This document shows, in pieces, positions 2,032 to 57,130 of a stretch of DNA of 58,356 nucleotides. The notes under the pieces were generated by a model. The model had not been told where the DNA came from. It searched no databases and saw nothing but the letters and a program-made list of their open reading frames with translations. The stretch is from an uncultured Nitrospiraceae bacterium (GTDB taxonomy: Bacteria; Nitrospirota; Thermodesulfovibrionia; UBA6902), in contig CAYFXR010000161.1 of NCBI GenBank assembly GCA_964347155.1, forward strand, positions 1-58,356, read 5' to 3'. Both the position numbers and the translations under genes were made by a program. How positions within the stretch are numbered: the stretch's first letter is position 1; the number at the start of each line of letters is the position of its first letter.

Positions 2032-2119
2032 TTAACCCGAAAAATGCGTTTGAAATAATGTCCCGATATGTCGGGATTGGAAGAAAATTTATTTACAATG
2101 TCTGCATTATTTGGGTTAA
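2032..2119 (+). repeat. MITE/REP-like element, short form (copy A, 88 bp)
   Basis: TTAACCCGAAAAATGCG...CTGCATTATTTGGGTTAA. Both TIRs are present and there is an internal hairpin TCCCGATATGTCGGGA. It lies 8 nt downstream of the fliS-1 stop. Confidence 0.8.
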
Positions 2120-2126
2120 TCTTCGG

Positions 2127-2495
2127 TTACAGTTGACTTACCTGCTGCATTTCCTTCCAGGCATCCCTGATGATCTCAATAATCCGTTCCGCATTTTCTA
2201 TAGCCTTTATGTCTCCATTTGCATTGGCCTGATAGAGTCCGACAAGGACAAAATCATAGAGATTTTTGAGATTCCGGGCGATCTCTCCGCCATCCATATT
2301 AAGTGAGTTTGACAGCTCTGTCACAATCGCAGAAGCCTTTTTAATATATAACGCCTTTCCTGTTGAATCACCCTGCTCTAATTTCTCTTTTGCAATCCTG
2401 ATAAAGTTGACCGCACCATCATAGAGCAAAGTGACAGCCTGTATTTTGTCTGTATCTTTTGTCTCTGTCTGTACATCCGTTCTCAATACTTCCAT
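2127..2495 (-). CDS. fliS: flagellar export chaperone FliS (paralog 1)
   Basis: 122 aa, with LLYDGAVNFI...ELSNSLNMDGGEIARNLKNLYDF typical of FliS. SD GGAGGAAGAG lies before the ATG. It is clearly similar by eye to the second FliS at 5379-5825. Confidence 0.85.
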   Translation of the reverse strand: MEVLRTDVQTETKDTDKIQAVTLLYDGAVNFIRIAKEKLEQGDSTGKALYIKKASAIVTELSNSLNMDGGEIARNLKNLYDFVLVGLYQANANGDIKAIENAERIIEIIRDAWKEMQQVSQL

Positions 2496-2519
2496 CTCTT
2501 CCTCCTTGTTGATTGTTTA

Positions 2520-2701
2520 TTGACCCAAAAAATGCTTTTAAAATAATGCAGATGTTGTGAAAAAATTTATTTTTCGATACATTAAACGCATTTTTAATCA
2601 ATGTACCTGTTCTTATTTTTATTCAAAGCTATATGCATAATTTGATAAAAAAATATCGAGTTAAATAAATTTTTGAACAATGTCTGCATTATTTGGTTTA
2701 A
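2520..2701 (+). repeat. MITE/REP-like element, long form (copy B, 182 bp)
   Basis: TTGACCCAAAAAATGC...CTGCATTATTTGGTTTAA aligns end to end with copies D, E and H. It lies between the sigma54 promoter at 2783 and the fliS-1 ATG. Confidence 0.8.
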
Positions 2702-2782
2702 GGCGTCTATGCCGCTTACTTGTATTTTCAACATTTCTAACAGGTGACCATTTCAAGGTTCTATAAAATATGGTGGGAATAG

Positions 2783-2798
2783 AGCAATATCTATGCCA
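2783..2798 (-). promoter_or_regulatory. sigma54-type promoter (TGGCAT-AGATA-TTGCT)
   Basis: Minus-strand read TGGCATAGATATTGCT matches the consensus. It is upstream of fliS-1, with repeat copy B in the predicted leader. Confidence 0.7.
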
Positions 2799-2917
2799 AA
2801 GATTAAGACAGGAATTTTTTTATATTTTCTTTAACTTTAAATGCCTCTGGGAGGAGGCATACATACCTGAAAAAGCTTTACCCCGTATAATATTTGTACG
2901 GGGTTTAAAGCAACTCC

Positions 2918-3072
2918 TTTAAAAATGCCATCTTGCATTCATAAAAGTATTAATGAATGCAAAAAACTTTTATCGATTGCAAAATGGCATTTAATAATCA
3001 TGTTGCATTTTTAAAGATTTTAAAGGTATCTATGCCTTGTATTTGCATGGTTAACTGCATTATCTAGGTTAA
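2918..3072 (+). repeat. degenerate copy of the MITE/REP-like element
   Basis: The right end CTGCATTATCTAGGTTAA (3055-3072) matches the family right TIR. The left part, AAAAATGCCAT...TTTTATCGATTGC, resembles the family only loosely. Confidence 0.35.
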
Positions 3073-3247
3073 TGCAATGAGCATACTTTTGATAAGCTTA
3101 TACAAAGAGAATAATTGTCAAATATTTCAATATACGATTGGTAAAATCAGGGAAAAATCTTCACCCCTATGGTATTATTTTTCCTGCCTTCCATAAATAT
3201 ATCAAAACGCAAGTTTGCCGCCCTTACCCGTTCCTCTGGTTCTCGCC

Positions 3248-3325
3248 TTATCTAAAATGCAGTTAAATAATGCAGGCGTTGGAAGAAAATAAATTTTATT
3301 ACAATGTCTGCATTATTTGAGTTAA
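3248..3325 (+). repeat. MITE/REP-like element, short form (copy C, 78 bp)
   Basis: TTATCTAAAATGCAG...CTGCATTATTTGAGTTAA overlaps the last 8 codons and the stop of the Maf gene. Confidence 0.7.
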
Positions 3326-4810
3326 CTCTTCTATATATCTGTTACACATATCAATCCGTTGTGCAGCCGGAATCTCCTGCAAAAAAGACCATAACTTAAC
3401 TTTTGAATTTATTCGATGTATGTGTGAATTATTATATTGCCTTCCTCCTTTTCCTCTTTTTATATCTTTCAATAATGTATCAACCTGTTGAATCGTAACG
3501 GGAGATGGTGTTCTTTTCACATTAAAAACAATTTTTTCATTTCTGTTACGCAATTTTTTATCCAATTCATCCTGACTGAGTATAGCCGTCGTGTTAAAAT
3601 CAATTCCACCTGCAATTTGAAATACTTTTTTACCCGTTTTTCTTAATTCTATAGTCTTCTGCTGCATATAACGGGCAGCGTGAAAATAGACCGATTGTGT
3701 AGTTGCAATCTGATTGTCACTTGTTAATACCCTAAACGTTGACATCATATCATTTACTTTCAAATCATTATCGTATTTATATTGAGTCCTGTAAGAATAA
3801 CGACTGTCCTTCCAGCAAAAATCCATACCAATACAATATATCTCATTAAATCCCATATAACCTGCTAACAAGAGCATAACCTCAGAGACCGAAGAAACCG
3901 GATCTTCCATTATCGGTAACCGAGCTTTTTCCCATATCATTTCATGTATCTGTCCACATCTGAAATGAAATAGAAATGTTTTTTTTCTCCTCCAATCCAG
4001 GGTAAGGGGATCAACACTGGTCTCTGCAAAAAAGGCCTCAAAATCATCGCTACATTCAGCCAGGAAGGATGTCATATCTTTTGGGTCCGCACAAACAACA
4101 AAATGTACCTTAATTCCATTTTTCTGTAAAAAAGATGCTGACTGCAATGATGCAAAGACTATACTCGTGTCAGTCTTTTTTAAAACAGGAATGCTTTGCT
4201 TCAGTGACGGGCCTGGATTAGTGAGAACTGCTCTCTTGCCTTTAAAAAGTCCTTCAAAATCTTTGATGCTGCCTAAAAAAGGCAATCGCACCATTGCCTC
4301 CAGTGATCTCTGGCTAACAATATGTTTTATATGATCATTATTGTTATATATCCTTCCCAAAAATTGTATAGCAAGTCTATATTCCAATCGGCAAAAAATA
4401 TCATACCCGGGATGGATGAACAGCTTAGGCTTTGCCCCTTTCTTTACAAAATGTAAAACGCTCTTTTTAAAATCGCTATAGTTATAGACAACAGTCACTG
4501 CTTTTTTCCATTCTCCACTACAAACCGGAAAAGACTGCTGCATAACGGGGAACGGTTCCCATACAATTATATTCCCATACCCTAAACTATATATTGACCT
4601 TGGAAGATAACCTAATCCCAGACCAATGATAATGATATGATCGCATCTTTCTTCCTTTGTTTTTGCGATAAGCTTACGGGCAATACCGTTTACTTGCTCC
4701 AGAGGATCATATAGACTATATACTGCCCGACCGCCGAGCAAAAGTATTTTTTCACCGGTTTTACTGACTTTTACTTCCCATTCACATTCTGAGTATCCTT
4801 TTGCATTCAT
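3299..4810 (-). CDS. motility-associated factor (Maf/DUF115-type) putative flagellin glycosyltransferase
   Basis: 503 aa with NPGPSLKQ and an IYCIGMDFCW-type core typical of Maf/MptE-like proteins. It is located between the two fliS genes. Confidence 0.75.
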   Translation of the reverse strand: MNAKGYSECEWEVKVSKTGEKILLLGGRAVYSLYDPLEQVNGIARKLIAKTKEERCDHIIIIGLGLGYLPRSIYSLGYGNIIVWEPFPVMQQSFPVCSGEWKKAVTVVYNYSDFKKSVLHFVKKGAKPKLFIHPGYDIFCRLEYRLAIQFLGRIYNNNDHIKHIVSQRSLEAMVRLPFLGSIKDFEGLFKGKRAVLTNPGPSLKQSIPVLKKTDTSIVFASLQSASFLQKNGIKVHFVVCADPKDMTSFLAECSDDFEAFFAETSVDPLTLDWRRKKTFLFHFRCGQIHEMIWEKARLPIMEDPVSSVSEVMLLLAGYMGFNEIYCIGMDFCWKDSRYSYRTQYKYDNDLKVNDMMSTFRVLTSDNQIATTQSVYFHAARYMQQKTIELRKTGKKVFQIAGGIDFNTTAILSQDELDKKLRNRNEKIVFNVKRTPSPVTIQQVDTLLKDIKRGKGGRQYNNSHIHRINSKVKLWSFLQEIPAAQRIDMCNRYIEELTQIMQTL

Positions 4811-4912: not shown

Positions 4913-5094
4913 TTTACCAAAAAAATGCATTTAAAATAATGCAGGCTTTGTGAAAGAAATTATTTTTCGATACCTTAAACGCAATATTAATTGATCGAGC
5001 GTGAATTCTTTTATTCAAAGCCATATGCACAATTTAATAATAAATTTATCGAGTTAAATAATTTATTGAGCAATGCCTGCATTATTTGGGATTA
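4913..5094 (+). repeat. MITE/REP-like element, long form (copy D, 182 bp)
   Basis: TTTACCAAAAAAATGCATTT...CCTGCATTATTTGGGATTA. It lies between the sigma54 promoter at 5168 and the Maf ATG at 4810. Confidence 0.8.
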
Positions 5095-5378: not shown

Positions 5379-5825
5379 TTACAAATTTGAATTTTGAATT
5401 TGTTTTGTATTGAGTTCTTTCAATCCAGGATTTTTCACCTGGACGTTTACTGGTTGTTTCATCTCCTGCATCATTTCTTTCCAACCGTCTTTAATCGTTT
5501 CAATAACTCTTTCTACATCTTCTATCGCCTTGATATCATTATTCATGTTAGCAAAGAGAAGACGTCTGAGGGCATAATCATAAAGACTCCTCAGGTTCTT
5601 AGCAATCTCCCCCCCTTTTTCCATATCCAGTACATTGGACAGTTCACTTACAATTGTCGTTGCCTTTACAATATGGGTTCCTTTTGATATAGTATCTCCC
5701 CTTTCAATCTTATGTCTAGCGATCTTAAGATGCTTCAGCGTCCCTTCATACAACATCAAAACAATTCCCACTTTATCGGTAGATGCAATAACAGTCTTCT
5801 TATAACCCGCAATGTCCATGTACAC
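5379..5825 (-). CDS. fliS: flagellar export chaperone FliS (paralog 2)
   Basis: 148 aa with MLYEGTLKHL...ELSNVLDMEKGGEIAKNLRSLYDY. It follows fliD, the canonical position. Confidence 0.9.
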   Translation of the reverse strand: MYMDIAGYKKTVIASTDKVGIVLMLYEGTLKHLKIARHKIERGDTISKGTHIVKATTIVSELSNVLDMEKGGEIAKNLRSLYDYALRRLLFANMNNDIKAIEDVERVIETIKDGWKEMMQEMKQPVNVQVKNPGLKELNTKQIQNSNL

Positions 5826-5872: not shown

Positions 5873-7237
5873 TTAAGCCTGTAAAGAAATGTTGTTCAAT
5901 AAATTTCCCGCAGTCTGAAATCCACTTACAAGTGATTCTAGAGCTGTAAATTTGCGAACCAGATCCTCCTCTGTTTTATCCAGCCTGTATTCCATATTCC
6001 TTATAGTATCATTTATATTGTCAATAATATCCTTTAAACCTTTTTCCCTTAAAGTTATGGAACCATCAACAGTACTCGTAATTGCGTCTATATAGTCATG
6101 TATCTGTATTGCAATACCTTCTGTTGCATCTGTAAAAAGATTTGCAACATCATCAAGGTTAGAAGAAAGTTTGGAATCCAGTGTACTGCTGTCTATCTCA
6201 AGCTTGCCGGTTTTGCTGTCAGTTGTAATACCTATCTGGGCAAGCGTCTTTAAATCATCCGTAAGTCCTGACACACTGTCTGAAATGATACTCCTAAACT
6301 TGCTCTCGATATTCCTCGCAGTCCCTTCTCCTGAAAAAATGCCGCTCACTCCAGTGGCAGAATCATATGCCCTGTTTGTGGAAAGGAAAGATATCACTTC
6401 ATTATGAGCACTGACAAAATCTTCTATCTGTTCCTTTATTGCATCCACATCTGCGATCACCGATACTGTACTTGATGAACCCTCCTTGTAAAGATTTATC
6501 GTCATTCCCTCTATTACATCCGTGATGGTATTTGAACTTCTTGAAATTGATATACCGTCTACAGTGAAATCGGCATCATCACCAGTCTTCTTTTCAGTAA
6601 AAGTAGTCGACCGAAAATCTTCGGTATTGCCGGTTCCATCCAGTGTCGTACCTGCATCAATGCTGATTGTTTTTGTACTGCCCATATCATTTCCCGTAAT
6701 TGACAACCGGTAAGAAGAACCATCATTAATGATTGTTGCTGTGACTCCAGGGTTACTTGTGTCATCATTAATGAGGTTTTTCAGACCTTCCAATGTGGTA
6801 CCATCCGCTACGGTAAGCGTTCTTTGTGTCCCTGCATATGTATATTGAAAAATTTTATCACTGCCGCTGTTGTTCACTACCGTTGCAGATGATGCAACCC
6901 CGCTGTGTACTTCTTTTTCTTCTGAAGCAAGGTCTGTTACCGTTACGTTGTAGTTACCCACGGGAGTTGTATTGCCCACTGTAGCGTTCAAAACTGTTGA
7001 GTCACCTACCGATACAGACTTTGCATAAAAATTAGCTGAAGTTCTCAGTTTATCAACAGCACTTTCCACGGCTGAAAGCTTTGTTGAAAGTTCACTATAT
7101 GTGCTGATTTTTTCTTTATATGCAGATTTTTTGTTTTCTAATATCTTAATAGGCTGGCGCTTTACCTCAATGAGTTTGGATATTAAATCATTATAGTCAA
7201 TTCCTGTGCTTAGACCACCTACGGTAAAAGTCGACAT
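5873..7237 (-). CDS. fliD: flagellar filament cap protein FliD
   Basis: 454 aa. The N-terminus GGLSTGIDYNDLISKLIEVKRQPI and a C-terminal coiled-coil region are typical of FliD. Confidence 0.95.
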   Translation of the reverse strand: MSTFTVGGLSTGIDYNDLISKLIEVKRQPIKILENKKSAYKEKISTYSELSTKLSAVESAVDKLRTSANFYAKSVSVGDSTVLNATVGNTTPVGNYNVTVTDLASEEKEVHSGVASSATVVNNSGSDKIFQYTYAGTQRTLTVADGTTLEGLKNLINDDTSNPGVTATIINDGSSYRLSITGNDMGSTKTISIDAGTTLDGTGNTEDFRSTTFTEKKTGDDADFTVDGISISRSSNTITDVIEGMTINLYKEGSSSTVSVIADVDAIKEQIEDFVSAHNEVISFLSTNRAYDSATGVSGIFSGEGTARNIESKFRSIISDSVSGLTDDLKTLAQIGITTDSKTGKLEIDSSTLDSKLSSNLDDVANLFTDATEGIAIQIHDYIDAITSTVDGSITLREKGLKDIIDNINDTIRNMEYRLDKTEEDLVRKFTALESLVSGFQTAGNLLNNISLQA

Positions 7238-7619: not shown

Positions 7620-7639
7620 TCCCTATCATCCAATCATTG

Positions 7640-13554: not shown

Positions 13555-14690
13555 ATTATCTCCAGCTCTGCATTTAACGCGCCTGCAGACTTTAGCGCCT
13601 GAAGTATGGATATGAGGTCACGTGGTGTTACACCTAAGGCATTTAATGCCCTTACTATTTCACCCAGGGTAACGCCTGATACCTCAACAAGAGAAGCCTT
13701 TTGCTCTTCAACTTTAATATCTGTTCGAGGTACAAGAATAGTCTCTGCCTTTTCAGATGCAAATGGGCCTGGTTGAGAAACTTTGGGTTCTTCTTTGATC
13801 TCAATTGCAAGGGAGCCGTGAGCAATTGCTACAGGGGATATTTTTACATTATCTCCAATAATTATCGTTCCGGTTCTTTCGTTAATGATAATCTTAGCCG
13901 GCATATCAACATCCACCTCCAGCATGTCAACCTTTGTAATTAATGTAACGATTCTATCCTTATATACCGGTGGTATCAATAACTTTACTGATGACGGATC
14001 AATCGGGAATGCATACGTTCCTTTTAAGGCGTTGTTTATCTGCCTTGAAATTTCATCTGCCGTAGCAAAATCACTCTTATGGAGAAACAGCCTGATTTCA
14101 TTGCCATCACCGAGAGTAAAAAATGGTTCCCTTTCTATTGTTGCACCCGCAGGGATTTTCCCTGCGGTTGGATGATTTTTTTGCAAAGAAGCTGCCTCTC
14201 CTTCTGCAGCAAAACCCCCTATTGATACAGGACCCTGGGCAAGGGCATAGACCTTGCCATCAGGGCCCTTCAGGGGGGTAAGAAGTAGCGTGCCACCTTG
14301 AATACTTTTCGCATCACCTATAGTTGAAACAAGTACGTCAACCTTCTTTCCCGGTTTCGCAAAAGGTGGGAGTATCGCAGTAACGACAACAGCAGCTATA
14401 TTTTTTGATTTTATATCTTCTGCATGTAACGTAAGCCCCATCCTTCTGAGCATATTCCCAATACTCTGTATAGCTGCCTGTCCTTTATCACCGGTGCCAT
14501 CAAGTCCAACCACAAGTCCGTAACCGATAAGTTGATTATCTCTAACACCTTCAAAGCTTGCTATATCCTTGATACGCTCAGCATGACTGAAAGTGATAAG
14601 TAAGCAGTAAGCAGTAAGCAGAAAAAGGTAAAGTAGTCCTCTACTTACTGACTTCTGACTTCTGATTTCTGATTTCATTAGAATGGCCAT
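13551..14690 (-). CDS. flgI: flagellar P-ring protein FlgI
   Basis: 379 aa with signal peptide ...LLITFSHA/ERIKDIASFEGVRDNQLIGYGLVVGLDGTGD. An alternative ATG at 14678 overlaps the flgH stop by 1 nt. Confidence 0.95.
   Translation of the reverse strand: MAILMKSEIRSQKSVSRGLLYLFLLTAYCLLITFSHAERIKDIASFEGVRDNQLIGYGLVVGLDGTGDKGQAAIQSIGNMLRRMGLTLHAEDIKSKNIAAVVVTAILPPFAKPGKKVDVLVSTIGDAKSIQGGTLLLTPLKGPDGKVYALAQGPVSIGGFAAEGEAASLQKNHPTAGKIPAGATIEREPFFTLGDGNEIRLFLHKSDFATADEISRQINNALKGTYAFPIDPSSVKLLIPPVYKDRIVTLITKVDMLEVDVDMPAKIIINERTGTIIIGDNVKISPVAIAHGSLAIEIKEEPKVSQPGPFASEKAETILVPRTDIKVEEQKASLVEVSGVTLGEIVRALNALGVTPRDLISILQALKSAGALNAELEII
14595..14676. repeat. heptanucleotide-periodic hairpin array inside the flgI 5' coding region
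   Basis: AAGCAGT AAGCAGT AAGCAGA ... GTAG-TCCT-CTAC ... ACTTCTG ACTTCTG ATTTCTG ATTTC. Confidence 0.7.
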
Positions 14691-15422: not shown

Positions 15423-16130
15423 TTAAAGTTCCACCTTAACTGTATTTTCATCTATCAATACTCCGCTGACCTCTTTTTTTGATGACAGGTTCATTGCCCT
15501 TACCGTCGTTCCAACATATCCTTTCTCTTTCGTTTTACCGGCCGTCGTTATATTAAGCCCTTTATGACGTATCATAAGCATTACCATCTTTCCTCTTTTT
15601 ACCAACTGAGATTTCTCAACCATATCTTCTACTATCGGGATATTGGCAATTATGGATCTCTTTAAAGATTTTCCTATGATTAATTCCGGATTCTTTACTG
15701 AACTTTTTGGCATTTTTCTAATATCCATTCCGGAAACATATATATCTTGATAGCGGAGGACATGACCCTTTTTGAATGGTCTCCTGCTCTTAACAACGCT
15801 GTCAAATGCCCTGACATTTGCCTTTACCATTACCCTTCTGTCAGTCTTGAATAAAAAAGAAAAAACAGCCTTTCCAATCGGACCTTTTTCAACATTAATC
15901 TTCTCGGGTACTTCTACGGGCACTTTACCAATAACTTGAACACCGGTAACTTCCACTTCTTTCCAGGGGTAGTTTTTTGTTACATACATCTTTATGATGC
16001 TTTCCGGATTCCATGAAGCAGCCACTACTAAATCAGAAGGCAAAAGGAAAAAACATGAAACAAGAACAATGCATGAGATAGTTACCAGTGTGCAAGATAT
16101 ATGTAACCTTTTAAGCATTATCACATTCAT
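15423..16130 (-). CDS. flgA: flagellar P-ring assembly chaperone FlgA
   Basis: 235 aa with a signal/TM N-terminus and a SAF-like C-terminal region (RPFKKGHVLRYQDI...VRAMNLSSKKEVSGVLIDENTVKVEL). Confidence 0.85.
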   Translation of the reverse strand: MNVIMLKRLHISCTLVTISCIVLVSCFFLLPSDLVVAASWNPESIIKMYVTKNYPWKEVEVTGVQVIGKVPVEVPEKINVEKGPIGKAVFSFLFKTDRRVMVKANVRAFDSVVKSRRPFKKGHVLRYQDIYVSGMDIRKMPKSSVKNPELIIGKSLKRSIIANIPIVEDMVEKSQLVKRGKMVMLMIRHKGLNITTAGKTKEKGYVGTTVRAMNLSSKKEVSGVLIDENTVKVEL

Positions 16131-16164
16131 TATCTCCTCTCCTTATGCCCATTGCCAATTGCCT

Positions 16165-16346
16165 TTAACCCAAAAAATGCATTTCACATAATGCAGTCTT
16201 TGTGAAAGAAATTATTTTTCGATACCGTAAACGCAATAATAATTGATCGAGTGTGAATACTTTTATTCAAAGCCATATGCATGATTTAATAATAAATGTA
16301 TCGAGTTAAATAATTTATTGGGCAATGTCTGCATTATTTGGGTTAA
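16165..16346 (+). repeat. MITE/REP-like element, long form (copy E, 182 bp)
   Basis: TTAACCCAAAAAATGCATTT...CTGCATTATTTGGGTTAA fills the flgG-flgA intercistronic gap, starting 3 nt after the flgG stop. Confidence 0.85.
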
Positions 16347-16349
16347 TTA

Positions 16350-17138
16350 TTATCTCTTTATTCTATTTGCCATTTGCAGCATCTCATCCGACGACTGCAC
16401 TACCTTTGAATTAAGCTCATAAGCCCTCTGGCTCACAATCATGTTTACCATCTCCTCCACTACATTTACATTACTGAGTTCGAGAAATCCCTGATTAACC
16501 ATGCCAAGTCCTTCTGATCCAGGGTTACCGGTTATGGGTTCGCCTGATGAACCAGTCGTCAAATATAGATTTTTACCAATCGCATTAAGACCACCGGGAT
16601 TTATAAACTGCGCTAATTCTATCTGTCCTATCTCTGAAGGTGTTGTGCTTCCGGCCTGCCGCACTGAAATTGTGCCATCCGAACTGATTGTAATACTCAA
16701 CGTATTCGAGGGGATAGTCATTGATGGCTCTATTGGATAACCATCCGAGTTTACTATACGACCTTCACTGTCAAGTTTAAAAGCACCTGCACGTGTATAC
16801 GCAATTTCTCCATCCGGCATGGAAATCTGAAAAAAACCTTCTCCTTCTATTACCAGATCAAGGCTATTGTCAGTTGATACAAAATCTCCCTGTTGAAACA
16901 TTTTCTGAACAGCTGCAGGTTTTACACCGAGGCCTATCTGTATACCCGATGGAATTTCTGTTCCCTCCGCTGAAGTAGCACCTGCCGTCTTTAATCCCTG
17001 ATATAACAGTTCCTGAAAATCAGCCCTGCTTTTTTTAAATCCGGTTGTATTTACATTTGCAAGGTTATTGGCTACTACGTCAATATTGAGTCTCTGTGCC
17101 TCCATACCTGTTGCTGCGATAAACATTGACCTTTGCAT
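16350..17138 (-). CDS. flgG: flagellar distal rod protein FlgG
   Basis: 262 aa. N-terminus [28 protein letters not shown] and C-terminus [23 protein letters not shown]. Confidence 0.95.
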
Positions 17139-17156
17139 CCTTTTCCCTCCTTATTT

Positions 17157-17268
17157 TAGTCATTAGTCATTAGTCATTAGTCACCAGTCACTAGTCATTA
17201 GTTATTGACCAGTGACCATTGACTGATGACCAGTGACTTTTGACTATTGTCCGATGACCAGTGACCAC
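17157..17268. repeat. heptanucleotide array (16 units) forming a long imperfect hairpin (flgF/flgG junction)
   Basis: TAGTCAT x3, TAGTCAC, CAGTCAC, TAGTCAT, TAGTTAT, then TGACCAG TGACCAT TGACTGA TGACCAG TGACTTT TGACTAT TGTCCGA TGACCAG TGACCAC. Confidence 0.85.
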
Positions 17269-28711: not shown

Positions 28712-30901
28712 CTACCTAGACAATGCAGGGGTCACAGATTTCCTGATATTATTTGAAAGATTTACTGTATCCTCCCAGGTATTTCCACCGTCAGTTGACC
28801 GCCTGAAATATATCTCATAATTATCCGTTGCAGCATACTGCCACACTACGTAAATCTCTGTTCCAGCAATCGTAATAACAGGGTTCTTTGACTCCCCTTT
28901 CATGGTGTTCAGTCTTACTGTAGCACCCCAGGTATTTCCACCGTCAGTTGACCGCCTGAAATATATCCTGTAATTATCCCTTTTACCATACTGCCATACT
29001 GCGTAAATGTCTGTCCCTTCAACCGCTATGGCAGGGTTCTTTGACTTCCCTTTCATGGTGTTCAGTCTTACCGTAGCACCCCAGGTATCTCCTCTGTCGG
29101 TTGACCGCCTGAAATATATCCTGTAATTATCCCTTTCACCATACTGCCATACTGCGTAAATGTCTGTTCCCTCAACCGCTATGGCAGGGTTCTTTGACTT
29201 GCCTTTCATGGTGTTCAGTCTTACTGTAGCACCCCATGTATCTCCTCCATCGGTTGACCGCCTGAAATATATCCTGTAATTATCCTTTATACCATCCTGC
29301 CATACAAGATTTATTAATGATAAGCAGTCAGTATCATCTAAGTCTGTGGAACCATCGCAGTCGTTATCTAAAGAGTCATTACAGGTAATTTCTTGATTTT
29401 CATCCTTTATGTCTGGAGAACATGTATTAATTACCTCACCTCCCTGACAAGTCAACATGCCTGTTGATACACATTCACCCAAACCACAATTTGTCGTCGA
29501 AGTGACATAATGTTCATCAGCGGTTCCATCACAGTCGCTGTCTACACCGTCACAGTCAGAATCGTCTCCTGTCGGGCTGCCTTCTGTACAGGAGTCAACT
29601 TCTATACCATTAACACAGATTTTCTGACCTGTAGAAGTGCATGCTCCTCGTCCACATTCAGTATCTGTTATTACATAATCCTCATCATCAAATCCGTCAC
29701 AGTCATCATCCATACCGTCACAAGTTGCATCATCTGGAGCAGCTCCTGCAAAAGGGTCGCATGTGTCTATCAAGCTTCCGCTCTGGCACTCAAGCTGGCC
29801 GGTATTGTTATTACATGCACCTGTTCCACAACTGGTTTGTGTTGGTACATAATCTTCATCAGCACTACCATCACAGTCATTGTCAATGCCATCACAATTG
29901 CTATCATCTGCGCTTGGATGGACAGTGTCATCATTATCATTGCAGTCAACATCAGGAAGATATCCGTCTCCGTCAATATCAACCGGGATGAACTGCTTTA
30001 TTTGATTGTTTTTTGTATCAGCGATATAGACATTTCCTGATGAGTCTACTACTACTCCATGAGGATAATTCAACTGACCGTCTGCTGTTCCATATGAACC
30101 CCACTTAACGACAAAACTGCCATCAGATTTCAACCTCTGTACCCTGTTATTATTCGAATCAGCAACATAGAGATCTCCGGATGTTCCTACTGATATTCCA
30201 TATGGATAATTAAACTGACCATCGCCTGCGCCGTTAGAACCCCATGATGCGACAAAATCACCGTTAGCACTGAACTTCTGGATTCTATGGTTTCCTGTAT
30301 CAGCAACATACACATTACCTGATGCATCTTCTACTGCTATCCCATATGGATAACTAAACTGACCGTCGCCTGTACCGTTTGAGCCCCATGCGGTAATAAA
30401 TACACCATTTGAATTGAACTTCTGAACCCTGTGAAGACCTGAATCAGTAACATACACATTTCCAGATGCATCCACGGTTATTCCCTGTGGATAGATAAAC
30501 TGTCCGCTACCTGTACCATATGAACCCCATTCTGTAATAAAATCGCCAAGAGAACTGAATTTTTGGACCCTATTATTTCCCCAATCAGCAACATACACAT
30601 TACCTGATGCATCTACAGCTATCCCATATGGATAACTAAATTGGCCGTCACCTGTACCGTATAAGCCCCATGAAGTGACAAAATTACCGTTAGCACTGAA
30701 CTTCTGGATTCTGTTATTATTCGAATCAACCACATAAACATTGCCGGATATATCTAATGCTAATTTATATGGATTATTAAATTGACCGTTACCTGTACCT
30801 TTTGAGCCCCATTTATTGTTAAATTGATATTCGACAGCATGCACACACGTGTAAAGAAATAGCATGATAAAAGTAACTGATAAGATAAGGCCCTTTTTCA
30901 T
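28712..30901 (-). CDS. secreted multidomain protein: NHL repeats + MopE-type Cys/Asp-rich metal-binding motifs + BNR/Asp-box repeats
   Basis: 729 aa with a signal peptide. Six NHL-like units (GxGxGQFxxPxGIAVDxSGNVYVAD), four CDGxDNDCDG modules and four 51-aa units containing STDGGxTW. Confidence 0.8.
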   Translation of the reverse strand: MKKGLILSVTFIMLFLYTCVHAVEYQFNNKWGSKGTGNGQFNNPYKLALDISGNVYVVDSNNNRIQKFSANGNFVTSWGLYGTGDGQFSYPYGIAVDASGNVYVADWGNNRVQKFSSLGDFITEWGSYGTGSGQFIYPQGITVDASGNVYVTDSGLHRVQKFNSNGVFITAWGSNGTGDGQFSYPYGIAVEDASGNVYVADTGNHRIQKFSANGDFVASWGSNGAGDGQFNYPYGISVGTSGDLYVADSNNNRVQRLKSDGSFVVKWGSYGTADGQLNYPHGVVVDSSGNVYIADTKNNQIKQFIPVDIDGDGYLPDVDCNDNDDTVHPSADDSNCDGIDNDCDGSADEDYVPTQTSCGTGACNNNTGQLECQSGSLIDTCDPFAGAAPDDATCDGMDDDCDGFDDEDYVITDTECGRGACTSTGQKICVNGIEVDSCTEGSPTGDDSDCDGVDSDCDGTADEHYVTSTTNCGLGECVSTGMLTCQGGEVINTCSPDIKDENQEITCNDSLDNDCDGSTDLDDTDCLSLINLVWQDGIKDNYRIYFRRSTDGGDTWGATVRLNTMKGKSKNPAIAVEGTDIYAVWQYGERDNYRIYFRRSTDRGDTWGATVRLNTMKGKSKNPAIAVEGTDIYAVWQYGKRDNYRIYFRRSTDGGNTWGATVRLNTMKGESKNPVITIAGTEIYVVWQYAATDNYEIYFRRSTDGGNTWEDTVNLSNNIRKSVTPALSR
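28715..29302 (-). repeat. 153-nt near-identical tandem repeats (3 full + 1 partial) in the 3' part of the NHL/BNR gene
   Basis: The W codons of successive WQxG units lie at 29302 and 29149 (153 nt apart). The protein units are nearly identical (WQYG[EK]RDNYRIYFRRSTD[RG]G[DN]TWGATVRLNTMKGKSKNPAIAVEGTDIYAV). Confidence 0.85.
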
Positions 30902-31147
30902 TTTTAAACCCCCACTTAAAATTAGCCCAAGTATGAGAAGTTGCTTAATATAAAAAATTATTTATTTAAATATTTTTAAATAAGATTGTCCCTTTTTAAA
31001 TATAAAACCTTATATTAAGTGTAAATTATTTTATCATAAATGTCAATATATTTTACATTTTAAAATTGGTATTTTATCTTTTTTCATATGTTTATATATT
31101 TTCCCTGTTTAAAACGAAAATGGGTTTTAATCCCTCCCTGCCCCGCT

Positions 31148-31382
31148 TTAATCAAAAAATGCATTTCAAATAATGCAGGCTTTGTGAAAGAAATTATTTT
31201 TCGATACCTTAGACGCAATTCCAACTAATCTATTGGAAATATGTTTGTTCCCCCTCACCCTTTCCCTCTCCCGCCAGGGGAGAGGAGATTTGAAAGGATG
31301 CCATTCATCCCCTTGCACAGCAAGGGATATTCTGGCAAAATTTTTATAAATCTTGTTATAATGTCTGCATTATTTGGGTTAA
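31148..31382 (+). repeat. MITE/REP-like element with a different, GC-rich internal module (copy F, 235 bp)
   Basis: The left end TTAATCAAAAAATGCATTTCAAATAATGCAGGC... and right end ...CTGCATTATTTGGGTTAA are conserved. The interior carries CCTCTCCC-GCCA-GGGGAGAGG and CCCTTGC-ACA-GCAAGGG hairpins. Confidence 0.75.
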
Positions 31383-49900: not shown

Positions 49901-49996
49901 TTAATGCAAAAAATGTATTTAATATAATATCCCGATGTGTCGGGATTGGAAAAAAATTTATTTATCGATACCGTAAACGCAACTCCAACTAATCCA
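49901..49996 (+). repeat. MITE/REP-like element, left portion only (copy G)
   Basis: TTAATGCAAAAAATGTATTT...TCCCGATGTGTCGGGA...TTTATCGATACCGTAAACGCAACTCCAACTAATCC. It shares its internal variant with copy F, and no clear right TIR is present. Confidence 0.6.
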
Positions 49997-50061
49997 AGGG
50001 GAATGACAGAAACAACATTTTCATCTTTCGTGGTGACCCATAGGGGCATGATTGTTTGAAT

Positions 50062-50088: not shown

Positions 50089-50141
50089 AATATCAATAAA
50101 ATGAACGTAATAAATAAACATTATTGTACGGGTATTCATTA

Positions 50142-52406
50142 ATGTTCCAGACAATCAGGAACAAATTTGTCATTTTTTTCATTCTCCTAGTTACCATTAC
50201 GATCACTCTGATCGGTATTGTAAGCGACTATATAATTCAAAAACATATTACTTATGGTGTCTCAAAAGACTTTTTAGAGGATCTGAAGCATGAAATTTCA
50301 AAGATAGACTCATTTATCAATGAAGTTAAAACAGATATTGATTACCTTTCGGATAATGCCGCATATAACTTTATCAGATCTGTTGATGCCGGGGAAAAAG
50401 ATGAGATAGAAAAGTGGCGTTTGCTGCTGGAGGATAAATTCATTAAATACATGGAGGTAAAGAAGATATACGCACATATAAGATATATTAATATCAAGGG
50501 AGAAGAGATTATAAATGTGGCCTTTGACGGGAAAAAGGCAAAAATTAACACGGGAAAAACAAATAATGATAAAGATCTCACGGCGTTTATAGAAGCTATG
50601 AAACTTAACAAGGGTATGATCTATATATCGCCATTGAAACTCAAAAGAAAAAACAATAAGGTAAAGATACCACTTGAGCCAATCATATGTTTTGCCAAGC
50701 CCATCTATAATGGCATAGACGAAAAATCTGACATCCTCATAATCGATGTCTTTGTAGAAGAACTTCTTAAGAAGCTGGATCATGTCAATTCCGGCAACTT
50801 AATGCTTGTAAACAGAGATGGTTATTTCCTGGTCCATCCTGATGAAAATGTTGAATTCGGGTTTGATATTCCCGAAAATAGCGGGAAGCATTTACATAAT
50901 TACTATCCTGATCATTCTGGAGAAATTTTGAGTAAACGATCCGGTTATGTGGACACTGGTAAAGGATGGGTAACTACCTGGCTCTACTGGATTTATAACC
51001 CGGGAGACAAATTAATTGTATATCAAAGTATTTTTCTCAATTCAATGGATAAAACCCATTATTGGGTGCTTATCAAATCAGGAAACAAGAAGGAACTCCT
51101 TGGCACTCTTATGACGATAAGGGTTGTAATGCTTGCAGTATCATTTTTATTTTTTGCCATAATCTTCCCTGTGATCATCTTTTTCAGCTGGAGACTTACT
51201 GATTCTATATCCAGGTTAAAAAAGGCTATGGAAGGCTTTGAGAAGGCAGAAGGTATTGAGGAACTGAATATAAAAACAAATGACGAGTTTAGTGATCTGA
51301 CACGATCATTTGTTACAATGGCAGAGAGTCTATACTGCACAAAGATGAGCCTGAATACAGAATTTCAGCGTCTCAAGAACCTTGTAAAATTTAGCAGGTT
51401 GGTAGGAGAAGAAATTTCCGAGAAAGAATGTTACACAATACTCATGAGGTTCCTGTCCAAAAGTTTTTACTTCGATAAAGTCATAGTAATCAGCTTTAAC
51501 AACAGCAAAAGTATCGCTGAAGTTATTGTCTCTTACGAGGGGAAAAATGGCAACCTCATTCTCAATACCTCCCCCCACTTTGATTTAAAGGTCATTGAAG
51601 ATCCCAGTCTCTGCAGGGCGTTAAGGTCCGGACGTAAATTTGTTGTCAATAATATTGAATCAGATTATCGGTGCCATTATCAAGAAGTAGATCAGGATAA
51701 AGGCAGTTGTGCATGCTTCCCGGTGGTTACAGGTGGTGCAGTCCTGGGATGGATTCACATGGTCAATTTGAATAAAGATTACTTTTCTGAAGAACGGTGC
51801 TTTATGATCGAATCCTATATCAATACACTTGCCCCTGCTATAAACAGTATACGCCTCCTTAATGCCCATAGGAAGATGTCTGTTGTTGATCCACTGACAG
51901 GACTTTATAATCGCAGGTTTTTAGAAGAGATACTCGAAAGGCAAATCGCTATAGCAGAGAGATATAAACAGTCATTAAGCATAATAATGGCGGATATCGA
52001 TCATTTCAAGAAATTTAATGACACTCATGGGCATGCATTTGGAGATAATGCCCTGAGGCTTATCTCTAAAATTATCCTTATGAGTGTTCGTGAATCAGAT
52101 ACAGTAGCCCGTTACGGGGGAGAGGAATTCATCATGGTTCTTCCTAATACCGATCTTGACTCTGCATGTCTACTGGCAGAAAAAATCAGAAAGGCCATTG
52201 AGCAATTTGACATTACAAATGATAAAGATATGATAGAAAGGGTAACAATAAGTATGGGGGTATCTAATTATCCTAATGTGGCCTATTCAATGAATGATTT
52301 GATCAATTCAGCAGATAGCGCTCTTTATCAGTCCAAGGCAAGAGGCAGGAATATGGTAACCAAAGCTGAGAAGAGCATGGTAAAGAGTATAATAATCGTG
52401 GATTAA
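50142..52406 (+). CDS. sensor diguanylate cyclase (TM - periplasmic Cache-like - TM - HAMP - GAF-like - GGDEF)
   Basis: RYGGEEF active site with a RESD I-site. The start is taken at the ATG (MFQTIRNKF...); the ORF-track start at 50124 is a TTG. No SD precedes either. Confidence 0.88.
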   Translation: MFQTIRNKFVIFFILLVTITITLIGIVSDYIIQKHITYGVSKDFLEDLKHEISKIDSFINEVKTDIDYLSDNAAYNFIRSVDAGEKDEIEKWRLLLEDKFIKYMEVKKIYAHIRYINIKGEEIINVAFDGKKAKINTGKTNNDKDLTAFIEAMKLNKGMIYISPLKLKRKNNKVKIPLEPIICFAKPIYNGIDEKSDILIIDVFVEELLKKLDHVNSGNLMLVNRDGYFLVHPDENVEFGFDIPENSGKHLHNYYPDHSGEILSKRSGYVDTGKGWVTTWLYWIYNPGDKLIVYQSIFLNSMDKTHYWVLIKSGNKKELLGTLMTIRVVMLAVSFLFFAIIFPVIIFFSWRLTDSISRLKKAMEGFEKAEGIEELNIKTNDEFSDLTRSFVTMAESLYCTKMSLNTEFQRLKNLVKFSRLVGEEISEKECYTILMRFLSKSFYFDKVIVISFNNSKSIAEVIVSYEGKNGNLILNTSPHFDLKVIEDPSLCRALRSGRKFVVNNIESDYRCHYQEVDQDKGSCACFPVVTGGAVLGWIHMVNLNKDYFSEERCFMIESYINTLAPAINSIRLLNAHRKMSVVDPLTGLYNRRFLEEILERQIAIAERYKQSLSIIMADIDHFKKFNDTHGHAFGDNALRLISKIILMSVRESDTVARYGGEEFIMVLPNTDLDSACLLAEKIRKAIEQFDITNDKDMIERVTISMGVSNYPNVAYSMNDLINSADSALYQSKARGRNMVTKAEKSMVKSIIIVD

Positions 52407-53806: not shown

Positions 53807-54463
53807 TTAATTCCTCCTTTCTTCTATAGTTTGTATATCATTCAGGTGTACATTACTTCTACCATTTAACACAAGATATGTATCTCCGTTTTTGTAAACA
53901 ACACCTGTTACATCTCCTGAACTACTTGTCACTGTTTCAATCTGATTACCCGAGCTATCCAATGCTTCAATCTCGAAAATATATGTGCCTTCAGGCATTT
54001 TATTACCAAAGCTGTCTTTGCCATCCCATAAATAACTGTTGTTACCCGCTGTATGAGGACCGAGATTTTCTGATCGTATAAGCTTTCCCACTCCATTAAA
54101 AATTGATATCTCGACTGAAGCCGCTTCCTCCAAAAGTCCATAATGAATATATGCTGCATCTTCAAGATATGTGGTATTCCCTGGCACTTGCACCGTTTTT
54201 CCTATCAGATTTGTAACCGCTGCATTCTGCATCGAATGCTGAAATGCAAGTACCTCCTCAAGCGTATCGTTAATATTATTCAACTCTTCCAGAGAACTGA
54301 ATTGAGCAAGCTGGGCCGTAAATTCTGTGCTGTCCAGGGGATTCAAGGGGTCCTGATAACTTAATTGTTTAAGGAGGAGGTTCAGGAAATCTTCCTTGCC
54401 GAGAGATGGTTTTCCAGCAAATGTACTACCGCCATTCATGTTACTTATATCAAGTATATCCAT
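53807..54463 (-). CDS. flgD: flagellar hook assembly protein FlgD
   Basis: 218 aa with LGKEDFLNLLLKQLSYQDPLNPLDSTEFTAQLAQFSSLE. Confidence 0.93.
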   Translation of the reverse strand: MDILDISNMNGGSTFAGKPSLGKEDFLNLLLKQLSYQDPLNPLDSTEFTAQLAQFSSLEELNNINDTLEEVLAFQHSMQNAAVTNLIGKTVQVPGNTTYLEDAAYIHYGLLEEAASVEISIFNGVGKLIRSENLGPHTAGNNSYLWDGKDSFGNKMPEGTYIFEIEALDSSGNQIETVTSSSGDVTGVVYKNGDTYLVLNGRSNVHLNDIQTIEERRN

Positions 54464-54480
54464 ATTACCTCCTTATAAAA

Positions 54481-54537
54481 TATTAGTCATTAGTCATTGG
54501 TCAATAGTCAATGACTAGTGACCAGTGACTATTGACC
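54481..54537. repeat. heptanucleotide hairpin array (fliK/flgD junction)
   Basis: TAGTCAT TAGTCAT TGGTCAA TAGTCAA | TGACTAG TGACCAG TGACTAT TGACCCA. The two halves pair at about 23 of 27 positions. Confidence 0.85.
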
Positions 54538-54608
54538 CAGTGGTTGTCCTCTCTGTATCGGCAAATATTCATTTTTCATATATGCTTTTCATAAAACTTT
54601 TGAAATTA

Positions 54609-56279
54609 TCATACAAATATATTTACAAGGCCACTATTGTCTCTGTTGTCTCTCACATTTTCCGGACTCTGAATAAATTCTTTGTCCGGGCCGTTGTTGA
54701 CAATGAAAATATTACCTGGATTATCTTTATGATCCTTCAACGCTACAGAAAATCCACCAACACTGACGCCGTTCTTGGAAAGAGAATCGACTATGTACTG
54801 CATATTGTTCTCAATAAATTCCCTTATGGCTTTATCCGGTGTGTTAATGTGAACATTTACCAGACCTTTATCCATGCTAAGATTAATATTCAGTTTTCCA
54901 AGGTTTTCATTTTCAACAGTGACACCCAATCTGTTGTTTCCCTTTATCACATAAACTATGTTATCCAGTAATTCTTGAAAACCGGATGCCCTGGTAGCAC
55001 TTCCGGTAAATAGGCCTTCATTTGTTCTCACACCTTCATGTGTTATATGAGAATTGTTTAACAGGTTAACATTGTTATTGTCAGAATTAACGTTTACCGG
55101 TCTCACATGATAATTTCCATAATTCCTTAAAACCCCTTCACGGTTAAAATTCCCTGCAAATTCTGACATAATCTTGTTTGTCAAGGCCTTTTCGTTGTTG
55201 CCGCCTTCCTGGGAATCTAATTCTGCCATTTCTTCAAGAAATTGAGATTCTTTGGAATAATTTTGTTTAACATCGGTATTCTTATCTGTTTGATTAAATA
55301 GTTCTCTGGTTTCGGTTTTAGAATCGTTTGAATGTAAATTTACTGATTTTAACTGAGAGTTCATCAAATCTTCTTCAACACTGTCACCCTCTTCATTTCC
55401 GGAATCATTCGCTATATCAGACAATAAACTACCCATATGCAAACCGTTCTCTGACTTTGACAGACCGCTTTTGACCCACCTTGAATTTTCGCTGTTATGT
55501 ATTGAGTCACTCTGAGAGTCCGCGGATTTTATAAGATTACCGTTTAATAAATGAGATAATGAGACATCTGTTTGAGAACCATCCTCTTCACCTTCACTCG
55601 TTTGATTCCCTGATGGTTCTGATACCTTCCCGCTATTAGTAAGGAAATTATCATTTGATTCTTCAGAAGAACGGTTTAATAAATGAGATAACAAGTCATT
55701 ACCAGTCTCTTCGTTATTTCGTATTTCTTTATCATCAACAAGAGAATCGGCAATCAATTCTTCAGCATTTTCGTTTAACGATGCTAATAATAAGTCACTG
55801 GTTTTCAAATCTGTCTTTGTTCCTGAAAAATCCTGTGACTGTTTAGAGTCTTCAGTATCATTATCTGTTAAAGCTGCTTTGTTGCTATCATTTTGATTTT
55901 TATTTTCTTTACATTTATCTGATTTTTCTGATCTTCCGTCAAATTCCTCTGATCTGTTATCTTTGTTTTGATTATCATCCTCTTTCAATCTTTCTGATTG
56001 ATCTGATCTTCTTTTGACTTCTCTTGATCTGTCATTCCTGTTTTGAACGTCAATCTCTGTGTCTCTGTCTATTTGTTCCGGTCTTTCGTTTTTTCCCTCT
56101 GATCTTAAATTATTATATTTTTCTGATTCCCTGGCGATTGTCTCTGATCTGAAATTGTTGATCAGTGAGTCAAACATAAAGCTGTCATAGGCGGCTTTAC
56201 CATGGGAATTCAGATCAGACACTGTATTGAGTTGCCGGAAGCCATTTCCCTCATTCATTATGCTCAGAGAAAAATTCAT
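54609..56279 (-). CDS. fliK: flagellar hook-length control protein FliK
   Basis: C-terminal FliK-type domain (LGKLNINLSMDKGLVNVHINTPDKAIREFIENNMQYIVDSLSKNGVSVGGFSV) and a low-complexity acidic/Ser-rich centre. The start is moved to M17 because a sigma54 promoter occupies the first 16 codons of the ORF; M24 (56258) is also possible. Confidence 0.8.
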   Translation of the reverse strand: MNFSLSIMNEGNGFRQLNTVSDLNSHGKAAYDSFMFDSLINNFRSETIARESEKYNNLRSEGKNERPEQIDRDTEIDVQNRNDRSREVKRRSDQSERLKEDDNQNKDNRSEEFDGRSEKSDKCKENKNQNDSNKAALTDNDTEDSKQSQDFSGTKTDLKTSDLLLASLNENAEELIADSLVDDKEIRNNEETGNDLLSHLLNRSSEESNDNFLTNSGKVSEPSGNQTSEGEEDGSQTDVSLSHLLNGNLIKSADSQSDSIHNSENSRWVKSGLSKSENGLHMGSLLSDIANDSGNEEGDSVEEDLMNSQLKSVNLHSNDSKTETRELFNQTDKNTDVKQNYSKESQFLEEMAELDSQEGGNNEKALTNKIMSEFAGNFNREGVLRNYGNYHVRPVNVNSDNNNVNLLNNSHITHEGVRTNEGLFTGSATRASGFQELLDNIVYVIKGNNRLGVTVENENLGKLNINLSMDKGLVNVHINTPDKAIREFIENNMQYIVDSLSKNGVSVGGFSVALKDHKDNPGNIFIVNNGPDKEFIQSPENVRDNRDNSGLVNIFV

Positions 56280-56291
56280 GTCGATCATGAA

Positions 56292-56307
56292 AGCAAGAGC
56301 CGTGCCA
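56292..56307 (-). promoter_or_regulatory. sigma54-type promoter (TGGCAC-GGCTC-TTGCT) of fliK-flgD-flgE
   Basis: Minus-strand read TGGCACGGCTCTTGCT matches the consensus exactly. The -12 GC lies about 14 nt upstream of the ATG at 56279. Confidence 0.7.
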
Positions 56308-56449
56308 TTTGGTTTAAAAAAAAACAAAGTGCAGGTCTTTATTGAATATTGAATGATTGATAGTGATGATACCAGGTTGCAATAAAAGAATTTTTTTCTT
56401 TAACAGGAATTTTTTTCCTGTTTAAAGCGGGTATCCAGTAACAAAGGTC

Positions 56450-56476
56450 TGGATTCCCGATCGGGGTTGGGAATGA
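56450..56476 (-). repeat. GTCATTCC-type REP-like hairpin
   Basis: The minus strand reads GTCATTCCCAACCCCGATCGGGAATCC. Confidence 0.55.
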
Positions 56477-56597
56477 CGGTCTATCTTCGGGTCAATGACG
56501 GTAAAAGATAAATAAATATCTTAAAAGGACTTTTTCACAGCCTGATGTTGCCTGACTGCTATGCTTCTTTAAGATTCATTTTTATGTAGTATTTAGC

Positions 56598-56828
56598 TTA
56601 TTCCAATATTTCAAGAACACAACGCTTGCCGAGTTTATTACCGGCAGCACTGAGTATTGTTCTCATTGCTCGTGCAGTATTTCCACGCTTTCCGATAACC
56701 TTTCCAATATCACTTGGAGCAACGCGCAATTCTAAAACAGCGGTTCTTTCTCCGTCTACCTCGGCAACTGAAACTTCATCCGGCCTGTCTACCAGAGACT
56801 TTGCCATTTGTTCAATGAGTGATTTCAT
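56598..56828 (-). CDS. KH-domain RNA-binding protein (YlqC/UPF0109-like)
   Basis: 76 aa starting at MKSLIEQ, with SD GGAGGT 6 nt upstream. ...[25 protein letters not shown] (GxxG KH motif). Confidence 0.85.
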
Positions 56829-56948
56829 GTCTACCTCCATTTGAATCTTGGTTGTTTTTTACATACCCGATATTTTCATCGGATACCATTTCTTCAAGTG
56901 CTGCTTTCGATTTCTTTTATCTCCTTACTAAAAAGGAGAATTCATCTA

Positions 56949-57130
56949 TTAACCCAAAAAATGCATTTCAAATAATGCAGGCTTTGTGAAAGAAATTATT
57001 TTTCGATACCTTAAACGCAATATTAATTGATGTAGTGTAAATATTTTTATTTAAAGATACATGCATAATTTAATAATAAATTCATCGAGTTAAATAATTT
57101 ATTGAGCAATGTCTGCATTATTTGGGTTAA
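56949..57130 (+). repeat. MITE/REP-like element, long form (copy H, 182 bp)
   Basis: TTAACCCAAAAAATGCATTTCAAATAATGCAGGC...CTGCATTATTTGGGTTAA, about 120 nt upstream of the KH gene. Confidence 0.85.

Follow-up and report, generated by a model that had tools for sequence, protein, structure and literature searches.

Probable miniature inverted-repeat elements with IS1380-type ends at TTAA sites in a flagellar region of an uncultured Nitrospiraceae bacterium

Correia elements duplicate TA upon insertion, and we know of no parent insertion sequence (IS) for them. ISEcp1, which belongs to the IS1380 family, targets varied A+T-rich sites and duplicates 5 bp there. The transposon piggyBac duplicates TTAA, occasionally CTAA or TAAA, and its terminal inverted repeats (TIRs) begin with CCC (PMC10813416); in the piggyBac literature, IS1380 transposases figure as distant prokaryotic relatives and as an outgroup (PMC10140906). 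In two reviews of prokaryotic miniature transposable elements with inverted repeats (MITEs), no MITE that duplicates TTAA is mentioned, nor is any from Nitrospirota. Here, we analyzed a 58,356-nt stretch (contig CAYFXR010000161.1, positions 1 to 58,356) of DNA from an uncultured Nitrospiraceae bacterium, the whole of which is called the window, together with the 182-bp repeat family dispersed in it. As judged by their sequences, these elements are very probably MITEs that carry the ends of an IS1380-type IS and insert at TTAA. The kind is already known, a MITE with an IS partner; it is ordinary selfish DNA with an unusually wide spread across phyla.

The 13- to 14-bp CCC...TGCA termini of the elements are the TIRs of a clade of IS1380-family ISs. 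One of the checks suggested in a preliminary description of the window was a search for a full-length IS bearing these termini, and an IS1380-family partner was indeed found. It is about 1.62 to 1.63 kb long, with a single gene encoding a 460-amino-acid (aa) DDE transposase. Among the first ~190 loci, no transposase lay between widely spaced ends or beside lone ends, where only housekeeping genes were present, and an all-against-all search among the loci for IS-sized repeats returned none. At locus L424 (6004-7631), a 1,628-bp unit with the layout gatgcca-TTAA-CCCGAAAAATGCATTTAGC...CCAAATGCATTTTTCGGG-TTAA-tggcatac encodes an interrupted IS1380-type transposase (Pfam PF13701, 7e-23; NCBIfam NF033539, 4e-49). 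Two contigs of a metagenome-assembled genome (MAG) labelled Nitrospira sp. from a deep lake cast (L256 and L299), both of which end inside the IS, carry TTAACCCAAATAATGCAG and, about 110 nt on, the N terminus of the same transposase. A protein search returned 785 relatives at E <= 1e-20, mostly of exactly 460 aa. Many of them are on contigs of 1.62 to 1.63 kb, that is, the IS assembled alone, and some, from Thermodesulfovibrionales and Dissulfurispiraceae, bear the NCBI name "IS1380 family transposase." Intact transposases scored 194.4, 201.8, and 214.9 bits on NF033539 (curated cutoff, 180) and were also matched by PF13701 (DDE_Tnp_1_4). The 17 contigs with three of these transposases had one architecture throughout. 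In the IS encoding P0057 (L441-L450; 2389-4014 in L441), the left end, TTAACCCAAATAATGCAG, was identical at 18 of 18 positions to the reverse complement of the right end of the window element, and the right end was identical at 17 of 17 positions to the left end of the window element. Further instances of the IS with these ends were found at L424, L256, L440, and L451-L456.

The ends of the IS and of the MITE are thus identical, and the IS inserts at TTAA, rarely at CTAA or TTGA, duplicating those 4 bp. Six copies of one identical IS in a single genome were flanked by TTAA/TTAA (five copies) or CTAA/CTAA (one copy). Another IS was flanked by TTGA/TTGA, and so was one 225-bp MITE. TTAA was present on both sides in 93 of 127 distinct paired elements. 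At L455 (1600-4489), the IS interrupts an IS110-family transposase gene; removing the IS together with one TTAA restored a 444-aa open reading frame (ORF), while removing both TTAA copies or neither gave 205 or 270 aa. Duplication of TTAA and duplication of TA within T-TA-A are indistinguishable from sequence alone; the 4-bp duplication is favored because the matched CTAA and TTGA variants differ at positions 1 and 3. In the choice between TTAA and TA, which the preliminary description had left to be checked, the matched CTAA and TTGA flanks and the frame restoration at L455 support 4 bp, and the flanking TTAA is a true 4-bp target duplication for the IS and the sister MITE. We also observed that the target of the L424 IS is itself palindromic (ATGCCA-TTAA-TGGCAT; 5997-6007 and 7628-7638), which hints at a target preference broader than four bases. 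Separately, a different 94-bp MITE (CCCCGTTAGAAA...TTTCTAACGGGG) with a clean TAAA duplication was found nested in a TTAACCC-type 227-bp MITE (L194, 2166-2259), and the empty counterpart of its site was present at L195 (5566-5792).

A mechanism can be proposed. The transposase, acting in trans, would bind the two ends of the MITE, excise or copy it, and insert it at TTAA. The MITE itself has the layout TTAA / CCCAAAAAATGCA ... about 155 bp without a gene ... TGCATTATTTGGG / TTAA. Its inverted ends (TTAACCCAAAAAATGCA versus TTAACCCAAATAATGCA) cover 17 positions with one mismatch, its arms align over about 55 nt, and the palindrome TCGATA...TATCGA is present in the interior; the TIRs, the TTAA flanks, and the palindrome had all been described correctly beforehand. 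The window copies are 78 to 236 bp long and have no conserved ORF and no transposase gene. Across genomes, the short forms make up a graded series of 88, 77, 65, 47, and 30 bp, which fits internal deletion between repeated arm sequences, as had been suggested from the window alone; the 88- and 78-bp forms would have arisen in this way. The earlier view of a nonautonomous element (a MITE) with two or more size classes is likewise supported. Longer forms of 197 to 367 bp carry extra inserts. Three or four subfamilies could be distinguished, which differ in their centers and have conserved ends of about 65 nt (left) and 50 nt (right). Within subfamilies, the subterminal arms were 2 to 3 times less variable than the center, as expected if only copies with intact transposase-binding arms propagate. 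One MAG (CAZXCW01) has 30-bp palindromes at five places (L192 3098, L225 2014, L239 6059 and 7315, and L246 867), which follow the pattern TTAAyCCAAATAATGCATTATTCGGGTTAA and differ from one another by a few bases. They consist of just the two termini fused at TGCA and may be either deletions that recurred or a minimal unit that is mobile.

The window spans a flagellar and chemotaxis region with a G+C content of about 37%; its genes are on the minus strand at 1-36.5 kb and 52.5-58 kb and on the plus strand in between, and no tRNAs were found across it. A repeat search of the window returned four copies of 182 to 183 nt, starting at 2520, 4913, 16165, and 56949. Their left 107 nt were common to a fifth copy (31144-31250), part of their left side was common to a sixth (49946-50004), and the right 48 nt recurred at seven places. 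The right-end 18-mer CTGCATTATTTGGGTTAA had 8 matches on the plus strand with up to 3 mismatches, compared with 0.2 expected by chance, and the left-end 20-mer had 7 matches, compared with 0.07 expected. An nhmmer profile built from 37 full-length copies found no copies in the window beyond those listed here, and every copy scored best on the plus strand. The copies are as follows.

2032-2119, plus strand: short 88-bp copy with TTAA at both ends, found by the repeat, end-motif, and profile searches.
2520-2701, plus strand: full-length 182-bp copy with slightly decayed tips (TTGA...TTTAA); nhmmer E = 2.5e-40.
2918-3072, plus strand: doubtful remnant, in which only the right terminus at 3055-3072 (CTGCATTATCTAGGTTAA, 2 mismatches) is recognizable; nhmmer E = 3.8, not significant.
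3248-3325, plus strand: short 78-bp copy with a decayed left tip, found by the repeat, end-motif, and profile searches.
4913-5094, plus strand: full-length 182-bp copy with decayed tips (TTTA...ATTA); nhmmer E = 1.6e-41.
16165-16346, plus strand: full-length 182-bp copy with TTAA at both ends; nhmmer E = 4.5e-43.
31147-31382, plus strand: 236-bp variant with normal left and right arms, whose center has been replaced or enlarged by a G+C-rich segment that contains a hairpin (CCCTCTCCCGCCAGGGGAGAGG...).
49901 to about 49996-50004, plus strand: left-half copy, with the right arm missing; nhmmer E = 1.6e-9.
56949-57130, plus strand: full-length 182-bp copy with TTAA at both ends; nhmmer E = 2.7e-42.

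The repeat, end-motif, and profile searches, the second giving matches far above chance, confirmed the copy family named in the preliminary description and corrected three of its members. The variant copy is real, with its start at 31147 rather than 31148 (236 bp). The left-half copy is also real and extends to about 50004, not 49996. In the supposed degenerate copy at 2918-3072, the last 18 bases do match and the rest is unrecognizable. The four exact 182-bp copies were 85 to 91% identical to copy 56949-57130, and pairwise identity among the full-length window copies was 80 to 91%. Because of this divergence, the insertions in the window are not recent; they are probably old, and the idea of an actively expanded family is not supported.

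All window copies are intergenic or gene-terminal, and all have one orientation; the preliminary description was right on both counts for the window. This siting would follow from the frequency of TTAA at stop codons and in A+T-rich spacers, and stop codons elsewhere often lie within the terminal TTAA (six cases). Copy 2032-2119 has its end 8 nt downstream of the fliS stop codon (gene at 2127-2495, minus strand), and copy 2520-2701 is located 25 nt upstream of the start of that gene. The last 27 nt and the stop codon of an MptE-like/Maf-type ORF (3299-4810, minus strand) come from the right end of copy 3248-3325. Copy 4913-5094 sits between this ORF and a second fliS (5379-5825). Copy 16165-16346 is inside the flgG-flgA operon junction, 3 nt past the flgG stop and 35 nt before the flgA start. 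The sole copy within the plus-strand gene block, 49901-50004, is upstream of a GGDEF gene (50124-52406), and copy 56949-57130 is 108 nt upstream of a KH-domain gene (56598-56840, minus strand).

Some further features of the window were noted. The two fliS paralogues (2127-2495 and 5379-5825) are 3 kb apart, with the MptE-like/Maf-type motility-associated gene and four MITE copies in between. Copy 2032-2119 contains a small hairpin module, TCCCGATATGTCGGGA; the module TCCCGATRTGTCGGGA substitutes part of the left arm at 2059-2076 and 49928-49945 and recurs in another Nitrospirae MAG (L294). G+C-rich, REP-like hairpins are present in the centers of some copies, both in the window (31240-31330; CCCTCTCCCGCCAGGGGAGAGG) and at L001 (618-984; CCCCTCCCCTTGTGGGAGGGG), and these inserts look like another small repeat family. 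In flagellar-operon spacers, there are 7-bp tandem arrays (TTAGTCA, TGACCAG, AGTAAGC, and ACTTCTG; 17156-17267, 54482-54542, and 14599-14676), and other heptamer arrays directly follow flgG in relatives (AGAAGCC and AGAGCAC; L081 and L083). In the gene at 28712-30901, encoding a 729-aa NHL/BNR-repeat protein, two tandem repeats are in frame, one with a 153-nt unit (3.6 copies, 90% matches; 28762-29305) and one with a 141-nt unit (4.6 copies; 30017-30813).

We then consider whether the repeats are mobile DNA or a local segmental duplication within the flagellar region. Five copies are crowded within 2.0-5.1 kb beside the two fliS paralogues, as such a duplication would have it. However, the repeats stop exactly at the element borders, the flanks of the copies are unrelated, and no direct repeats extend beyond TTAA. 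The element also recurs far outside the window. The exact right-end 24-mer, searched against species-representative genomes in eight-kilobase blocks, had matches in 78 blocks. These belong to 15 assemblies, nearly all with the label Nitrospirota or Thermodesulfovibrionia, and 40 of the 78 blocks came from one MAG. The family thus extends beyond the window. When paired by both ends, the elements were overwhelmingly 180 to 184 bp long. In many of the 78 blocks, the element was within 200 bp of a contig end, and a 3-kb metagenome contig of the same organism (L159; single metagenome scan) breaks inside copy 4913-5094. A segmental duplication is extremely unlikely in view of the presence of the element in 15 other assemblies, which it breaks at contig ends. 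In six relatives (L079-L084; the closest by FlgG, at 76 to 85% identity), flgG directly adjoins flgA with no element. Since the element is absent from this junction in the relatives, copy 16165 is a lineage-specific insertion within the operon; its reconstructed empty site reads ...GAGATAATAA-TTAA-AGGCAATTGG....

The terminus itself is spread much more widely than the 182-bp family. In a genome scan, the degenerate 17-mer TGCATTWTTYGGGTTAA and a 21-mer each had at least the matches listed. Chance matches of the 17-mer were estimated at about 280 in 596 Gb, so single matches in odd taxa are expected by chance. Paired ends 40 to 435 bp apart are not due to chance, because the partner end is too improbable. 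Among the matches listed, paired ends enclosing unrelated interiors carried the labels Deltaproteobacteria, Nitrospinae, Elusimicrobia, Omnitrophota, and Cloacimonadota, as well as Zhuqueibacterota, Ignavibacteriae, Pseudomonadota, and several unclassified "bacterium" MAGs. Some of the other-phylum labels may be binning errors, to judge from L043, which was binned as Candidatus Omnitrophota and is 91.7% identical over 700 bp to the Nitrospiraceae contig L010. A scan of viral contigs with the 17-mer gave almost only chance matches, and a plasmid BLAST search with an end sequence turned up nothing but chance matches. In the family as a whole, only the spread of one 17-bp terminus across phyla is mildly surprising.

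The 8 to 9 window copies are all on one strand, an orientation bias that had been called strict and more typical of REP/BIME-type elements mobilized by Y1 transposases or of elements under functional selection. On the first of these views, the elements would be REP/BIME- or REPIN-like and mobilized as single-stranded hairpins by a Y1 (RAYT/IS200-like) transposase, which would account for strict orientation. On each strand, the whole element does fold as a long hairpin (-41 and -38 kcal/mol; z, -2.9 and -3.5), and among plus-strand arm mismatches in the 182-bp family, G:T is commoner than A:C. Elsewhere, however, orientation was not strict. In other genomes, the gene beside the right end was on the opposite strand in 46 cases and on the same strand in 34; the local GC skew in the orientation of the element was negative in 55 cases and positive in 34 (p = 0.03); and neighboring copies agreed in orientation 8 times and disagreed 6 times. 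With a preference of 0.6, the probability of finding eight of eight copies in the favored orientation is about 0.02 (arithmetic). The uniform orientation in the window is therefore real but local, not a rule of the family. In a published survey, IS1380 showed an orientation bias in few or no chromosomes (PMC3971601). The G:T excess, for its part, was absent from other families with the same terminus. RNAalifold gave 158 G:T versus 9 A:C, and an unbiased palindromic alignment gave only about 2:1; the excess was carried by a few fixed sites, was missing in sister families, and was rejected as evidence of a strand-specific RNA or single-stranded DNA hairpin. In addition, the elements have true TIRs and a 4-bp target duplication, their ends are common to DDE (IS1380) ISs, and their termini are common to several phyla, unlike those of species-specific REPs. 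A tblastn search with IS200 TnpA, an approximate query and therefore a weak test, found no Y1 transposase at E < 1 in 2.5 Mb of element-bearing loci. Mobilization by a Y1 transposase is very unlikely, and the orientation argument for it is not supported.

Another possibility is that the copies are, or have become, functional RNA or DNA kept by selection, either as a flagellar mRNA hairpin (an RNase III or stability site, as the preliminary description had suggested) or as a gene for a small RNA, with the promoter-like TTAACC-N16-NATAAT of the left end as its driver. Both strands form a stable hairpin, several copies have a sigma-70-like match at their left end, conservation within subfamilies is higher in the arms than in the center, the family-wide orientation bias, mild as it is, runs in the direction of the window, and one element lies inside the flgG-flgA operon. 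Against this, promoter-like and terminator-like matches were at background level (for the promoter-like ones, 16 found, compared with 17 expected from shuffled sequence), and the predicted start site would land within the stem. There was no terminator-like site in the 182-bp copy scanned (16000-16500), and the sole terminator-like match inside an element was the small hairpin module of the short copy 2032-2119. Rfam gave 0 matches at the gathering score across the window, in line with the earlier view of a possibly undescribed family, and a permissive Rfam scan of copy 16165-16346 with its flanks (16100-16420) gave only noise (E >= 0.4). In other genomes, the family adjoins all kinds of unrelated genes, and copies are missing from orthologous flagellar junctions. 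Arm conservation is also what a transposase-binding constraint on "master" copies predicts. A selected function is accordingly improbable; no evidence of an adopted one was seen, though some adoption is possible. With insertion as a MITE, read-through of the flagellar operons would yield a long mRNA hairpin, including in the flgG-flgA transcript, and this looks like a by-product. Three other candidates were tried and rejected: a dif/Xer site, because the resemblance was confined to one subfamily; an integron attC site, because there was no array, orientations were mixed, and the 17-bp ends are common to several phyla; and sigma-54 or sigma-28 promoters, because the motifs were in the wrong order or absent.

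Several points nevertheless weigh against the elements being MITEs of an IS1380-type IS. No transposase gene lies within the window. Beyond the terminal 17 to 18 nt, the MITE interior has no similarity to the IS. The MITE therefore did not arise from the IS copies found by simple deletion, and the two have only the transposase recognition ends in common. Flank BLAST and joined-flank searches returned no exact filled/empty pair for the 182-bp element, and exact-protein look-ups with five window proteins for an empty-site comparison gave no matches. The target duplication of the 182-bp copies is presumably 4 bp, by extension from the IS and one MITE of another subfamily. Finally, orientation in the family is mildly biased (about 60:40) toward the direction seen in the window, and together with arm conservation, this makes some selection on inserted copies possible.

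The elements explain many contig breaks in Nitrospirota/Thermodesulfovibrionia MAGs, and assembly and gene calling would benefit if they were masked. With its abundant MITEs in many phyla, a TTAA-specific IS1380 clade would offer a tractable bacterial counterpart to piggyBac-style target choice, and it would mark horizontal exchange among anaerobic bacteria of sediment and groundwater. Nothing of special note for flagellar biology emerges: the copies occupy spacers, with one inside the flgG-flgA operon, and because the family adjoins all kinds of genes elsewhere, there is no specific flagellar link. A bolder reading, which we regard as tentative and rather doubtful, is that this bacterial IS1380 clade is piggyBac-like (near-strict TTAA, CCC...GGG, and a 4-bp duplication) and has seeded a MITE superfamily with the conserved 17-bp terminus TTAACCCRAAWAATGCA, spanning Nitrospirota, Desulfobacterota, Omnitrophota, Cloacimonadota, Nitrospinota, Elusimicrobiota, and others. 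If so, it would serve as the nearest prokaryotic working model for transposition of the piggyBac type, perhaps with scarless excision included, and would indicate recent transfer between phyla in anoxic sediments and groundwater.

The comparison with known systems bears on how far this likeness goes. piggyBac and the partner clade are alike in duplicating TTAA with occasional variants and in having CCC...GGG termini, whereas piggyBac is eukaryotic and the present host is bacterial, with a transposase of 460 aa. A sequence search of solved structures with the partner transposase gave no match. Its predicted fold, a model of moderate quality (pLDDT 69, pTM 0.73), matched Tn5 transposase best (E = 1e-5, TM 0.37), and the piggyBat transposase ranked seventh (E = 0.07, TM 0.30); this model-based structural comparison does not single out piggyBac. 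A full-text literature search, with ISfinder and Dfam outside its scope, turned up neither a prokaryotic MITE or IS described as having these ends nor any account of a TTAA-specific IS1380 clade with many MITE families. Like other members of the IS1380 family (ISEcp1 and ISPme1), the partner has one transposase gene, a length of about 1.6 kb, ends that start with CC(C), and a short duplication (4 bp here). It differs from them in being strongly TTAA specific (TTAA on both sides in the 93 of 127 paired elements given above) and in the many MITE families that it has given rise to, whose interiors are unrelated and whose assemblies carry the labels of several phyla.

REP, BIME, and REPIN elements are likewise intergenic and palindromic, with conserved arms and a variable center, and the 30-bp palindromic forms recall them. 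In contrast to those elements and their RAYTs, the present family has a target duplication, TIRs common to a DDE IS, and a cross-phylum spread; its orientation is not strict, and no RAYT was found by the approximate-query tblastn search of the 2.5 Mb of loci. It differs from IS200/IS605-type palindrome-associated elements in having TIRs and in its orientation, 55:34 by GC skew and 8:6 between neighbors. Correia elements of Neisseria are also about 100 to 200 bp long, with TIRs and with long and short classes formed by internal deletion, and they too are intergenic, often cotranscribed, and hairpin forming (see also PMC3184786). Their terminal sequence is unrelated; for the present family, an IS1380-type partner was identified, and the duplication is TTAA (4 bp). 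Chunjie, a MITE of Geobacter uraniireducens, is similarly 178 to 235 bp long and A+T rich, with partial copies and one copy within an operon (PMC3184786, PMC10969869). It has 21-bp TIRs and 9-bp direct repeats (PMC3184786), compared with conserved termini of about 13 to 17 bp and a 4-bp duplication here, and it is the nearest ecological analogue of the family described above.

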